The position numbers were made by a program, and so were the translations under genes. The notes beneath the pieces are model-generated. The model made no database searches. It had not been told where the DNA came from and worked only from the letters and a program-made list of their open reading frames with translations. DNA of 64,000 bases from an uncultured Bacteroidales bacterium (GTDB lineage: Bacteria; Bacteroidota; Bacteroidia; Bacteroidales; VadinHA17). Of this stretch, positions 59,710 to 64,000 are shown piece by piece. Numbering within the stretch: position 1 is the stretch's first letter; every line of letters starts with the position of its first letter. The stretch covers positions 65,570 to 129,569 of the forward strand of contig CAWJLF010000007.1 in the NCBI GenBank assembly GCA_963843635.1. Direction: 5' to 3'.

Positions 59710-62160
59710 ATGAAAAAACTCGTCAAATCATCACTTTTTATCCTGCTTATCTGTCAGTTGACTTCTCCCTTTATGATGGCACAGGGACATAAGAAGTACG
59801 ATCCTTACTCCAACCCGGATATTTATAAAAAGGGATGGATCGATTTTAATAAAAACGGGAAAAAAGACCTTTATGAAGATTCCAACGCCGACATTGAGGC
59901 CCGTATAAATGATCTTCTTAATCAAATGACCATAGATGAAAAAACATGTCAGCTGGTAACTCTGTATGGTTTTCCAAAGGTTTTAATGGATTCACTCCCT
60001 ACACCGGAATGGAAGAATAAAATATGGATAGACGGAATTGCCAACATTGATGAACATCTCAACGGTTATAGATCAGCAGCCCTTTCATCACCTCCTTCCC
60101 TTCACGCCAGGGCAATGAATACGGTTCAAAAATGGTTCATAGAAGAGACCCGGCTGGGTATACCCGTTGATTTCACCAATGAAGGTATTTATGGAGCCTG
60201 TTTCCCTGCGGCAACACTTTTTCCGGCACAGGTAGGTGTGGGCTCGTCCTGGGATAAATCGCTGGTATCAGATATTGGGGCTATTACATCTGCCGAGACT
60301 AAAGCCGCCGGATTCACAAACGTATATTCTCCTATTCTGGATGAAGCCCGTGATCCTCGTTGGGGACGTGCTGTTGAAAGTTACGGTGAGGACCCGTACC
60401 TCGTATCACAACTTGGACTACGACAGGTACTGGCGATTCAGAAAGACCATACTGTTGTTTCCACGCCCAAACATTTTGCGGCTTACAGTATTCCTATCGG
60501 TGGAAGAGATGGAGAAACAAGAACAGATCCCCAGATAGCCCCGCATGAGATGCAGACACTTCTGCTGGCTCCCTTCCGGGTTGCTTTCACCAAAGGTCAT
60601 GCTCATGGAACAATGGCGTCCTATAATGATTATGATGGGGTACCTGTTGCAGGATCCTCATGGTTCCTGACCGATTTGCTTCGCCGAGAGTGGGGCTTTA
60701 AGGGTTATGTAGTTTCTGACAGTGAAGCACTGGAGTTCCTGTGGTCCAAACACCATGTGGCACCTGATTATAAAGATGCCGTGAAACAGGCACTTGAAGC
60801 CGGATTAAACGTCAGGACTACCTTCAGGAGTCCTGACTCATACCTGATTCCTCTCCGCGAATTGATAAAAGAGGGTGCTATTTCAACTGAGCTCCTGAAC
60901 AGCAGGGTACACGACGTTCTATGGGTTAAGTTCTGGCTGGGTTTATTCGATAAGCCATATATAGATAATCCGGATGAATCAGACAAGATTTTTGCGAATC
61001 CTGAATATGAAAAAGTATCCAGAAAAGCTTCATATGAAGCAATGATACTCCTGAAAAACAAGGATAATTTCCTTCCTCTCGAGAAAGAAAAGGTGGGCAC
61101 CATGCTCATTGCCGGTCCCAATGCCGATAGTAAGGTCCTGTCGCTTTCGAGGTATGGTCCCAAGAATATTAATTACAAATCTGTACTAGAGGCTTTCAGG
61201 GCAAAGCTGGGTAAGAGCATAAATATTCTGTATTCCGAGGGATGTAAGATAACAGATCCGGGTTGGCCTGAAAGCGAGATAATACCAACAGAACCGAACA
61301 CAGAAGAAATGAAAGGCATAAATGATGCAGTGGAAAAAGCAGAAAAATCTGATGTAGTCCTGCTCGTACTGGGCGAAGACAATAATATAGTTGGTGAATC
61401 AAAGTCCAGAACTGATCTTAACCTGGCCGGCCATCAGCAATACCTCCTGAACAGGATCTGCGAAACAGGAAAACCTGTTATCCTGGTATTAATGAACGGA
61501 AGGGCAATAACTATAAATGAGGCAGATAAGAAATGTAACGCTATCATTGAAGCATGGTTCCCGGGAAAATACGGTGGAGAAGCAATAGCAGACATAGTGT
61601 TTGGTGATTACAATCCCGGAGGGAAACTCCCTGTTACCTTTCCCAAATCTGTCGGTCAGATACCTATGTGCTTCCCTTATAAACCCTCTGCCCAGGCGGG
61701 AGCGGCAACTACTGTCAATGGTGTTCTCTATCCTTTCGGATTCGGGCTCAGCTATACAACTTTTGAATATTCAAATCTCACTATAACTCCTGAAAAACAA
61801 TTAGAGGAAGGTATCGTAGATGTGGCTGTCGATATTAAAAATACCGGTAAAAGAACAGGAGACGAAGTGGTTCAGCTCTACATTAACGATGAGGTCAGTT
61901 CGGTAATTAGATTCGAAAAGGAACTACGAGGCTTTGAAAGAATAACACTTGAACCAGGAGAATCCAGGACAATACATTTCATGCTTTCCCCAGATGATTT
62001 GATGATGCTCGACAGGGATATGAAATGGATAGTTGAACCTGGGTGGTTCAAGGTAATGGTTGGAAGCTCATCAGCTGACATAAGGCAAGAGGGCAGGTTC
62101 GAGATCATGACAACAGACAGACTCAGTAAACCATACGATACACATAGGCTGGGCCGATGA
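59710..62160 (+). CDS. GH3 beta-glucosidase (BglX-type), intact
   Basis: 816 aa with RDPRWGRAVESYGEDP, KHFAAYS, GYVVSDSEA, FGFGLSYTTFEY and a C-terminal FnIII-like domain. Confidence 0.9.
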   Translation: MKKLVKSSLFILLICQLTSPFMMAQGHKKYDPYSNPDIYKKGWIDFNKNGKKDLYEDSNADIEARINDLLNQMTIDEKTCQLVTLYGFPKVLMDSLPTPEWKNKIWIDGIANIDEHLNGYRSAALSSPPSLHARAMNTVQKWFIEETRLGIPVDFTNEGIYGACFPAATLFPAQVGVGSSWDKSLVSDIGAITSAETKAAGFTNVYSPILDEARDPRWGRAVESYGEDPYLVSQLGLRQVLAIQKDHTVVSTPKHFAAYSIPIGGRDGETRTDPQIAPHEMQTLLLAPFRVAFTKGHAHGTMASYNDYDGVPVAGSSWFLTDLLRREWGFKGYVVSDSEALEFLWSKHHVAPDYKDAVKQALEAGLNVRTTFRSPDSYLIPLRELIKEGAISTELLNSRVHDVLWVKFWLGLFDKPYIDNPDESDKIFANPEYEKVSRKASYEAMILLKNKDNFLPLEKEKVGTMLIAGPNADSKVLSLSRYGPKNINYKSVLEAFRAKLGKSINILYSEGCKITDPGWPESEIIPTEPNTEEMKGINDAVEKAEKSDVVLLVLGEDNNIVGESKSRTDLNLAGHQQYLLNRICETGKPVILVLMNGRAITINEADKKCNAIIEAWFPGKYGGEAIADIVFGDYNPGGKLPVTFPKSVGQIPMCFPYKPSAQAGAATTVNGVLYPFGFGLSYTTFEYSNLTITPEKQLEEGIVDVAVDIKNTGKRTGDEVVQLYINDEVSSVIRFEKELRGFERITLEPGESRTIHFMLSPDDLMMLDRDMKWIVEPGWFKVMVGSSSADIRQEGRFEIMTTDRLSKPYDTHRLGR

Positions 62161-62320
62161 AATGAAACGGGAACCTATAAAAAACGATAAAGCAATAATA
62201 TATATCATAATCTGTAATGTTGAAAGAGTAACGCAATGAATTACAGCATGATATAATGACCCATATTTGGAGACCAGGCCTGAAACAACTATTTATTAAG
62301 AAGAAAAATTGTGCTTTTTC

Positions 62321-62350
62321 TTTGATATATTAAAATAAATGGTACATTTG
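62321..62350 (+). promoter_or_regulatory. Bacteroidota-type promoter (-33 TTTG, -7 TAcaTTTG)
   Basis: TTTG at 62321-62324 and TACATTTG at 62343-62350 are separated by 18 nt. The -7 box lies 22 nt upstream of the leader ATG. Confidence 0.45.
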
Positions 62351-62371
62351 TCGCTCATTTTATAACTAAAA

Positions 62372-62431
62372 ATGAAATTATCTTTAATCCATATTATTGT
62401 CATCCTTCTCATTATTGTCAAGTGCGTTTGA
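62372..62431 (+). CDS. branched-chain amino acid leader peptide (19 aa)
   Basis: MKLSLIHIIVILLIIVKCV-stop. 13 of 19 residues are Ile/Leu/Val, including an uninterrupted run of nine. It sits directly upstream of a terminator and ilvD. Confidence 0.55.
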   Translation: MKLSLIHIIVILLIIVKCV

Positions 62432-62463
62432 CCGGGAATAATATGTAGTTATTAAATATACAG

Positions 62464-62494
62464 AAGCTTTCCGGGGAACCGGAAAGCTTTTTTT
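62464..62494 (+). terminator. intrinsic terminator (attenuator) upstream of ilvD
   Basis: An 11-bp perfect stem pairs aagctttccgg with ccggaaagctt around the loop ggaa, followed by five T. It ends 18 nt before the ilvD ATG. Confidence 0.7.
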
Positions 62495-62512
62495 ATAATA
62501 ATTATTCAAGTG

Positions 62513-64000
62513 ATGAAGAACGAGTTAAGAAGTTCAAAAACAAGGACAGGAAGAAACATGGCTGGAGCCAGGAGTCTCTGGCGGGCCAACGGTATGACTG
62601 AGGAGCAGATGGATAAACCTGTTATAGCCATTGTCAATTCTTTCTCGCAGTTTGTTCCGGGACATGTTCATCTCCATGAAATTGGCCAGCTGGTAAAAAG
62701 GGAAATAGAAAAGAGGGGCTGTTTTGCTGCCGAATTCAACACGATCGCCATCGATGACGGGATCGCAATGGGTCATGCAGGTATGCTATATTCACTGCCA
62801 TCACGTGAGTTGATTGCTGATAGCGTAGAATATGTTGTAAATGCGCACCTTGCTGATGCAATGGTATGTATTAGTAACTGTGACAAGATCACACCGGGAA
62901 TGATGATGGCAGCAATGAGACTTAACATCCCTGTTGTGTTCGTGTCGGGCGGTCCCATGGAAGCCGGCCTGTTTAAGAACAAGTCGCTTGACCTCGTTGA
63001 TGCAATGGTCGCAGCTGCTGATACCAGCGTGAGTGACAGTGATCTCTATGAAATAGAAAAATCTGCCTGTCCAACCTGCGGATCCTGTTCAGGCATGTTT
63101 ACTGCAAATTCAATGAACTGTCTTACTGAGGCCCTGGGACTATCACTTCCCGGAAACGGGACAGTTGTTGCCACTCATGTTAACAGGGTTGCCCTGTTTG
63201 AAAAAGCGGCACAGTTGATTGTTGATATAACAAACAGGTATTACTATGAAGGAGATGATTCAGTGCTACCCCGGTCAATTGCTACCAAACAGGCTTTTAT
63301 GAATTCCATGTCGCTCGATATAGCAATGGGAGGTTCTACCAACACAGTGCTTCATCTTCTTGCCATAGCCAGCGAAGCCGGAGTTGATTTTACAATGAAA
63401 GATATAGATGATCTTTCCCGCAAAGTACCTAATATATGCAAGGTTGCTCCAAGCTCGAACTATCATGTTCAGGATGTGAACAGGGCTGGCGGTATCCTGG
63501 GTATAATGGGTGAACTTGAACGCGGCAATCTAATAGACAACACAGTTAACAGAATCGACTATCCTTCGCTGCGTGAAGCAATTGCAGATTGGGACATTAT
63601 GGGCGGAACAACCAGTGAAGCAGCATTCAACACATACAGAAGTGGTCCGTCGCTGGTTAGAAACATTAAAATGGGATCACAGGATACTATGTACAGGGAG
63701 TTGGATACCGACAGGAAATCTGGATGTATAAGGTCTGTTCAGCATCCTTACAACAAAGATGGGGGGCTGGCTGTTCTTTATGGTAACATAGCCAGGAAAG
63801 GGTGTATTGTGAAAACCGCCGGAATTGATCCGTCAGTTTTTTCATTTACAGGTACCGCCAGGATATTTGAATCACAGGATGAAGCTGCTGACGGAATTTT
63901 GAATGGTGAAGTCAGGGAAGGTGATGTCGTTGTAATCAGGTACGAGGGCCCCAAGGGTGGACCGGGTATGCAAGAGATGCTTTACCCGACATCATATATC
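62513..64000 (+). CDS. ilvD: dihydroxy-acid dehydratase (3' partial, runs off the window)
   Basis: Hand translation gives [64 protein letters not shown] and [19 protein letters not shown]. The frame is open for all 496 codons to the window end. It is absent from the ORF track because no stop falls inside the window. Confidence 0.95.

Follow-up and report, generated by a model that had tools for sequence, protein, structure and literature searches.

Does the ilvD gene at the end of this stretch of DNA stand under a switch that senses the supply of branched-chain amino acids? The stretch (64,000 nucleotides of contig CAWJLF010000007.1, GenBank assembly GCA_963843635.1, from an uncultured Bacteroidales bacterium of the VadinHA17 lineage; called the window below) has, directly before ilvD, a promoter, a very short open reading frame (ORF) rich in isoleucine, leucine and valine (ILV) codons and a terminator hairpin. 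We conclude, at a probability of about 0.88, that this leader is a ribosome-mediated leader-peptide transcription attenuator controlling a nine-gene ilv–leu–cimA operon. The conclusion is drawn from sequence comparison, and it is carried by the sequence elements themselves, their conservation, the covariation of three helices, a spacing rule and the content of the operon, all of which are observed. The features of the leader, named by the usual numbering in which region 1 pairs with region 2 (1:2 hairpin), region 2 with region 3 (2:3, the antiterminator) and region 3 with region 4 (3:4, the terminator), are as follows.

62321–62324, + strand: −33 promoter element TTTG, Bacteroidetes type, 18 nt 5' of the −7 box, read from the sequence.
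62343–62350, + strand: −7 promoter element TACATTTG (TAnnTTTG), read from the sequence.
62372 (ATG) to 62429–62431 (TGA), + strand: leader ORF MKLSLIHIIVILLIIVKCV, 19 codons plus TGA, read from the sequence.
62390–62398, + strand: region 1, CAUAUUAUU, 5' strand of the 1:2 hairpin, codons His7–Ile8–Ile9 of the leader ORF; pairs with 62437–62445.
62393–62419, + strand: regulatory codons IIVILLIIV, nine Ile, Leu or Val codons in an unbroken run, codons 8–16.
62417–62421 and 62428–62432, + strand: small inner hairpin GUCAA/UUGAC, enclosing the stop codon, from the minimum-energy fold.
62432–62438, + strand: region 2a, CCGGGAA, 5' strand of the antiterminator, directly past the stop codon; pairs with 62468–62474.
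62432–62463: spacer between the leader stop codon and the hairpin, 32 nt.
62437–62445, + strand: region 2b, AAUAAUAUG, 3' strand of the 1:2 hairpin.
62464–62474, + strand: region 3, left arm of the terminator, AAGCUUUCCGG; its 3' part, 62468–62474, doubles as the partner of the antiterminator strand.
62479–62489, + strand: region 4, right arm of the terminator, CCGGAAAGCUU, with the T-run at 62488–62494.
62513–64000, + strand: ilvD (dihydroxy-acid dehydratase), first gene of the operon, running past the end of the window; NCBIfam PRK12448, 1056 bits.

The leader has the sequence features that define the class of ilvL, ivbL, leuL and trpL: an ILV-rich ORF, a terminator with no promoter after it, the 2:3 and 1:2 pairings, and the geometry that relates them. 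Thirteen of its 19 codons encode Ile, Leu or Val. Transcription probably starts near 62356, a few bases past the TAnnTTTG box, which would leave a 5' untranslated region (UTR) of about 15 nt; this short 5' end is A/U-rich and contains an A-rich stretch without a Shine–Dalgarno sequence. The terminator stem is a perfect 11-bp helix (AAGCTTTCCGG/CCGGAAAGCTT, 62464–62474 with 62479–62489) with the loop GGAA, followed by T5 past the stem (T7 in full), and the hairpin taken alone has a predicted energy of −18.1 kcal/mol. The T-run ends 18 nt, and the stem 23 nt, before the ilvD ATG at 62513, and an in-frame GTG lies just 5' of that ATG, at 62510. A preliminary description of this DNA, made from the sequence alone, had named the TAnnTTTG-type promoter, the 19-codon ORF with 13 ILV codons and a run of nine, the 32-nt spacer, and the perfect 11-bp hairpin with its T5 tail 18 nt before ilvD, and each of these was found as it had been given. 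In addition, a terminator scan of 61900–62700 returned two sites, where shuffled sequence would give 0.4; both belong to one stem, counted once on each strand, and the leader hairpin is the sole convincing terminator in that interval. The fold of the leader is also more stable than that of shuffled sequence (z = −3.25).

Conservation of this layout was evaluated on the region preceding ilvD in three sets, namely 30 relatives, 29 further Bacteroidales families and 80 named records. For a locus to score as positive, the automatic test required a mini-ORF rich in ILV codons, a hairpin followed by a T-run no more than 130 nt from the stop codon of that ORF, and complementarity of the stop region to the left arm of the hairpin. 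The preliminary description had made its reading depend on finding the mini-ORF and the hairpin upstream of ilvD in related genomes, and both are there: 21 of the 22 genomes of the same genus were positive, the one failure having Ns in the leader, as were 34 of 37 from other Bacteroidales families (8/8 in a first draw and 26/29 in a second). Among the remaining records, 30 of 55 from other named Bacteroidota and 1 of 18 titled as other phyla scored positive. Among the named records, positives came from Bacteroides, Phocaeicola, Alistipes, Muribaculaceae, Dysgonomonadaceae, Paludibacteraceae, Prolixibacteraceae, Saccharicrinis, Ancylomarina and Azobacteroides. A search for ilvD across the phylum was of limited use, owing to the different IlvD subfamily (34–55% identity) that most other Bacteroidota have and to the frequent position of ilvD behind other genes.

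The results that follow refer to 77 loci, those scored automatically, for which a T-run of T4 or more was required. Ile, Leu and Val together make up 52% of the residues of the 77 leader peptides, the peptide sequence differs between families, and the ORF ranges from 18 to about 45 codons among relatives. A TAnnTTTG box lies 30–190 nt 5' of the antiterminator strand in 71 of the 77 leaders, against 9.2 expected from shuffling, and among genus relatives a TTTGATATATTAAAAA...TAnnTTTG promoter block is kept. The distance from the terminator to ilvD has a median of 25 nt, with a promoter box in between in two of the 77 loci. The position of the promoter before the leader and its near absence after the terminator, together with this short distance, indicate that transcripts reaching ilvD must pass the hairpin. 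Most of the 77 loci have a G+C-rich stem followed by at least five T, T4 or more having been the selection criterion. The cultured Bacteroides graminisolvens DSM 19988 (L070) also has the leader, with a short T-run that falls below this stricter T4 criterion.

The antiterminator would join the strand that begins at the stop codon to the left arm of the terminator. CCGGGAA (62432–62438) pairs with UUUCCGG (62468–62474) over seven pairs, one of them G–U, and a second, inner helix joins 62444–62447 with 62459–62462. When the ORF was masked, the minimum-energy fold of the RNA up to 62478 was the antiterminator, at −11.6 kcal/mol. The preliminary description had proposed ccgggaa at 62433–62439 as a weak antiterminator candidate; the pairing with the left arm holds, the strand lies at 62432–62438 instead, and the comparison across families supports the candidate as real. 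There, the strand at the stop codon and the left arm of the terminator change together. CCGGGAA/UUUCCGG is the form of this genus and GAGAAAGG/CCUUUCUC the commonest across families; other covarying pairs of strand and arm are CCGGGAG/CUUCCCGG, GAGAAUGG/CCAUUCUC, GAAGAAAGG/CCUUUCUUC, AUCGGAAAGG/CCUUUCCGAU, GUGGAAAGG/CCUUUCCAC, AAUCGGUAU/AUGCCGAUU and GGAAGGGC/GCCCUUCC.

This joint change was quantified in two ways. An alignment-free swap test was performed on fixed windows at the stop codon and at the left arm, with one locus for each distinct arm (29 arms). The native duplexes summed to −372 kcal/mol, compared with −264 ± 15 kcal/mol when partners were permuted, and none of 20,000 permutations was as good. 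Moreover, when 30 diverse leaders from across the families were aligned with MAFFT, with no fitting to any structure, both sides had changed in six of the eight antiterminator pairs. There were 18 antiterminator cells with a change on both sides, where shuffles gave 6.7 ± 2.1 (none of 500 as high), and 84% of the cells were paired, compared with 67% or less in every slid register. For the terminator, the same alignment showed changes on both sides in 8 of 9 pairs, with 94.4% of its cells paired. Taken across families, the sequences thus argue that the antiterminator is a real element of these leaders.

A competing 1:2 structure is formed by region 1, within the leader ORF, and region 2b, just past the antiterminator strand. 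This pairing was seen both in the minimum-energy fold and in the consensus fold of 23 genus sequences (RNAalifold), and its outer helix has 97.8% of cells paired in the genus alignment. Within the stem, inner pairs join U62400–C62401 with G62435–G62434, and the inner pairs of the 1:2 structure take in 62432, 62434 and 62435, so that the CCGGGAA strand is largely tied up in the 1:2 state. Furthermore, U62444–G62445 are common to the 1:2 stem and the inner antiterminator helix, which makes the 1:2 and 2:3 structures mutually exclusive; folding had been suggested in the preliminary description as a way to look for such exclusive structures, and it returned this pair. The swap test applied to 1:2 across families, which set the early ORF against the stretch past the antiterminator strand, gave −463 kcal/mol compared with −362 ± 14 kcal/mol (0 of 20,000 permutations as good), with a signal per locus that is weaker than for 2:3. 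When the stop-codon region was masked, or when the full-length free RNA was folded, the predicted fold contained the terminator.

The small inner hairpin that encloses the stop codon has changed on both sides in four of its five pairs in the genus alignment (columns 70–74 with 78–82), which explains the free variation of the three or four C-terminal residues of the peptide. This hairpin may serve to pause RNA polymerase, or it may be just part of the 1:2 structure.

The position of the regulatory codons relative to the antiterminator strand was then the same, within narrow limits, from locus to locus. From the end of the last codon of the ILV run to the first paired base of the strand, the median distance over the 77 loci is 11 nt (interquartile range 10–13), and in the window the gap to CCGGGAA is 12 nt. 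The leading edge of a ribosome reaches about 10–13 nt past the codon in its A site. Given this reach, a ribosome at the last regulatory codon would just leave the strand free, and a ribosome at the stop codon would cover it. In 60 of the 77 loci, the first base of region 2a falls between −3 and +8 nt relative to the stop codon, and the spacing from codon to strand holds whether the stop lies there, just before the strand, or 16–29 nt beyond it. The position of the stop codon is less constrained than the codon-to-strand spacing. The second arrangement was observed in eight loci (L033, L034, L036, L042, L043, L051, L052 and L054), where the ORF continues through the antiterminator strand to a stop codon 16–29 nt further on, with the spacing kept.

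These elements can be assembled into a mechanism in which the availability of charged tRNAs for Ile, Leu and Val would set expression of the operon. Transcription would begin near 62356, and the mini-ORF on the short A/U-rich 5' end of the transcript is presumably translated. With all three amino acids plentiful, the lead ribosome would reach the UGA at 62429–62431 and its footprint would lie over CCGGGAA at 62432–62438; after its release, the 1:2 hairpin (62390–62398 with 62437–62445, and the inner pairs) would tie up the same strand. Either way, the 11-bp terminator (62464–62489 and the T-run) would form, and polymerase would stop 18 nt before ilvD. If any of the three amino acids were scarce, the ribosome would stall within 62393–62419 and hold region 1 open, with its edge ending just short of 62432. 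CCGGGAA could then pair with UUUCCGG (62468–62474) once this had been made, the left arm of the terminator would be occupied, and polymerase would read on into ilvD. The layout had been taken for ribosome-mediated attenuation from the start, and the comparison bears this out, since the mini-ORF and terminator are conserved, the 2:3 and 1:2 pairings covary, and the spacing approximates the leading edge of a ribosome.

Several points weigh against this mechanism. Within the genus, the antiterminator columns are near-invariant and therefore show conservation without covariation, the covariation coming from other families. In the window the antiterminator is modest, with seven pairs including a G–U and −11.6 kcal/mol against −18 to −19 kcal/mol for the terminator. 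The full-length RNA strongly favours 1:2 with the terminator (−33.5 vs. −17.3 kcal/mol), and the choice between states must therefore be kinetic, made during transcription, as in classical systems. The predicted fold of RNA up to 62478 contains the antiterminator also when no ribosome is present, so a default-off state is not guaranteed by thermodynamics alone. In addition, a scan of this 74%-complete genome for mini-ORFs with terminators, which was crude and noisy, gave no clear leader-peptide attenuator other than that of ilvD. Finally, we know of no demonstration of transcription–translation coupling in Bacteroidota, and to our knowledge coupling close enough for such a switch has not been established there.

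Four other explanations of the same DNA were weighed against attenuation by a translating ribosome. A conserved leader RNA might be a switch worked by an RNA-binding protein, a small ligand or uncharged tRNA, with the ILV-rich frame incidental. Helices that are conserved and covary would be expected of any RNA switch, and within the genus some of what is conserved in the peptide (the His–Ile–Ile codons, CAUAUUAUU) is accounted for by pairing of the RNA. However, such a switch gives no reason for the 10–13 nt between codons and strand or for a stop codon that abuts or overlaps the strand in 60 of 77 loci; the ILV-rich open frame is kept across families whose nucleotide and peptide sequences differ, and no riboswitch, T-box or other Rfam family matches the leader. 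We consider this explanation very unlikely. Alternatively, the mini-ORF might encode a functional small hydrophobic membrane peptide, co-transcribed with the ilv operon or terminated before it, with no sensing involved. The leader peptide is sufficiently hydrophobic to form one membrane helix, and a second function has been reported for a leader peptide, Sinorhizobium peTrpL, in the accessible part of the source (PMC7298713). Against this, it is composition and not sequence that is conserved between families, the length runs from 18 to about 45 codons, the C-terminal residues vary within the genus in step with the RNA hairpin, and the element always lies 5' of ilvD. A functional peptide of this kind is thus highly improbable.

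The two remaining explanations concern the hairpin. Control might act mainly on translation or mRNA stability, a hairpin near the ilvD start hindering ribosome loading, and not stopping polymerase, in an organism that does not depend on Shine–Dalgarno pairing. The short distances of 23 nt (stem) and 18 nt (T-run) to the start codon would allow this, as would the T3 or interrupted T-run of a few relatives (L070, L094 and L045); yet the hairpin does not overlap the start-codon region, and its G+C-rich stem with at least five T in most of the 77 loci is that of a canonical intrinsic terminator, so we give translational control as the main mode very little credence, although in view of the short T-runs of those relatives it may contribute. 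The hairpin could also be the terminator of the upstream GH3 gene, with ilvD transcribed from its own promoter, an outcome that the preliminary description had itself named as fatal to its reading. The GH3 stop codon ends at 62160, and the terminator scan found no other terminator-like site between it and the leader hairpin, so that GH3 read-through would run into the ilv leader, meet the same switch and end there. Nevertheless, GH3 is the upstream neighbour in one other locus among about 135 related ones, while ilvD retains its leader and hairpin; between GH3 and the leader there is a conserved promoter; and the 18 nt from the T-run to the ilvD ATG correspond to an interval that holds a promoter box in only 2 of 77 relatives. 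Loss of the hairpin where the upstream gene differs was not seen among the related loci, and a GH3 terminator was rejected as hardly credible. Attenuation by the lead ribosome remains the explanation that we prefer.

The operon behind the attenuator was read past the window (G000:C7:128000-142000; the window is from contig C7 of a 3.87-Mb, 74%-complete assembly). It comprises nine closely spaced genes on one strand over about 11.8 kb, in the order ilvD–ilvB–ilvN–ilvC–leuA–leuC–leuD–cimA–leuB. Enzymes for all three amino acids are thus encoded, which fits the mixed Ile/Leu/Val leader. The cimA gene, between leuD and leuB, is citramalate-synthase-like, with 685 bits to the Leptospira CimA model, under its cut-off of 950; its presence in the operon suggests that isoleucine is made via citramalate.

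Among known systems, the closest in design are the E. coli ilvGMEDA leader (ilvL) and ilvBN leader (ivbL), which are multivalent branched-chain attenuators. They share with the leader described here a promoter-proximal ILV-rich mini-ORF, the 1:2, 2:3 and 3:4 hairpins and an intrinsic terminator immediately upstream of the first biosynthetic gene, and they respond to several amino acids at once, as the leader here is predicted to do. There is, however, no detectable similarity between them and the leader here in sequence or by covariance model. The leader peptide has 19 codons here and 32 in E. coli; the promoter here is of the Bacteroidetes type (TTTG/TAnnTTTG); an A-rich stretch takes the place of a Shine–Dalgarno sequence; the antiterminator strand begins directly at the stop codon; and one attenuator heads a nine-gene operon. 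The T-box of the Bacillus subtilis ilv–leu operon works without a leader ORF, by direct binding of uncharged tRNA. It too makes a choice between terminator and antiterminator before a combined ilv–leu operon and senses tRNA charging, but the leader here has an ORF and matches no T-box model.

Searches of Rfam 15 were consistent with a leader that lies outside the curated families. In 61900–62800, at E values up to 10, there was no match to a T-box, riboswitch or other leader besides a weak one to Phe_leader (RF01859), and eight relatives from different families gave no match at gathering thresholds. The Phe_leader match covers the full model (62364–62495; 30.1 bits, E = 0.0078) and stays under the gathering threshold of 55 bits. 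That family, the enterobacterial pheA leader, is alike in layout, with a 1:2 hairpin followed by the terminator, but the leader here has no Phe codon, so that the resemblance is one of architecture and not of membership. Bacteroid-trp, which we take to be a Trp-codon leader with a terminator, differs from the ilv leader in sequence, operon and amino acid. It is the nearest curated Bacteroidetes cis-regulatory motif in Rfam (RF01692; Weinberg et al., 2010, PMC2864571). It matched neither the window nor any other part of the genome, in a search that did find the Bacteroides thetaiotaomicron control.

Leaderless mRNA has been reported for Corynebacterium glutamicum, whereas the transcript here would have a 5' UTR of about 15 nt. 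For the Corynebacterium ilvBNC leader (ilvB-II motif), the accessible parts of two sources describe an upstream ORF and regulation by attenuation, one of them with a three-hairpin model (PMC10272879; PMC11857589). This leader is actinobacterial, unrelated in sequence, and heads ilvB and not ilvD. No description of a Bacteroidales ilv leader was found in the literature searched. A 2004 study by Vitreschak et al. reportedly predicted attenuators in Bacteroidetes/Chlorobi. Short ORFs that resemble leader peptides occur in some long 5' UTRs of B. thetaiotaomicron, according to a general remark by Ryan et al. (2020, PMC7366714), and the accessible portion of the supplements to that paper has no ilvD entry.

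The mechanism is a textbook one, and the leader is an uncurated instance of a well-known kind of switch that is widespread in Bacteroidales. We tentatively propose, at somewhat less than even odds, that these leaders form an order-wide cis-regulatory RNA family, the Bacteroidales ilv leader, which has no matching Rfam family and is possibly undescribed, and whose strict spacing would be evidence of a closely following lead ribosome. The alignments could seed a new Rfam family and improve the annotation of thousands of genomes; in the window, a regulatory mini-gene that had carried no annotation is now annotated, and one switch probably governs all branched-chain amino-acid synthesis in these bacteria, including the citramalate route to isoleucine. 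Bacteroidota start translation largely without Shine–Dalgarno pairing. Leader-peptide attenuation needs a ribosome close behind polymerase, and if the proposal is true, the strict distance from the ILV codons to the antiterminator would be direct and testable evidence that the lead ribosome trails polymerase closely in Bacteroidota. The 10–13 nt ruler would then offer a simple genetic handle on coupling, and the family is present in cultivable gut Bacteroides and Phocaeicola.

The leader start codon varies within the genus: many relatives (L003–L023) start with GTG (CAGTGAGAAT...), where the window has ATG. All genus leaders, GTG- and ATG-started alike, have an A-rich stretch upstream, and none has a Shine–Dalgarno sequence.

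Beyond the families with the leader, the layout was found in none of seven Prevotella records (L112, L117, L126, L128, L131, L133 and L135). In Prevotella the promoter lies directly 5' of ilvD, and the two loci inspected have TAnnTTTG 65–75 nt before ilvD with neither mini-ORF nor hairpin; this lineage appears to have lost the attenuator. The ilvD operon of Proteiniphilum begins with a different gene. In records titled as other phyla, among them Desulfobulbaceae, Spirochaetaceae, Fibrobacter, Acidobacteria and several Proteobacteria (L076, L081, L084, L085, L087, L097, L100, L102, L108, L109, L125 and others), IlvD N-terminal regions (first 200 residues) are 74–80% identical to the Bacteroidales consensus and the leader is absent. 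Gene transfer, strong conservation of this type of IlvD, or mis-binned contigs could account for them. Nine loci sampled from another order of the same class had no such leader directly upstream of ilvD; the tenth, L143 (G722), has a three-part attenuator, MNNKQLSVILSIIISVVNIY, before an IlvD of only 38% identity; there, CAGAAAG follows the stop codon and the terminator (GCCUUUCUG...) contains CUUUCUG.

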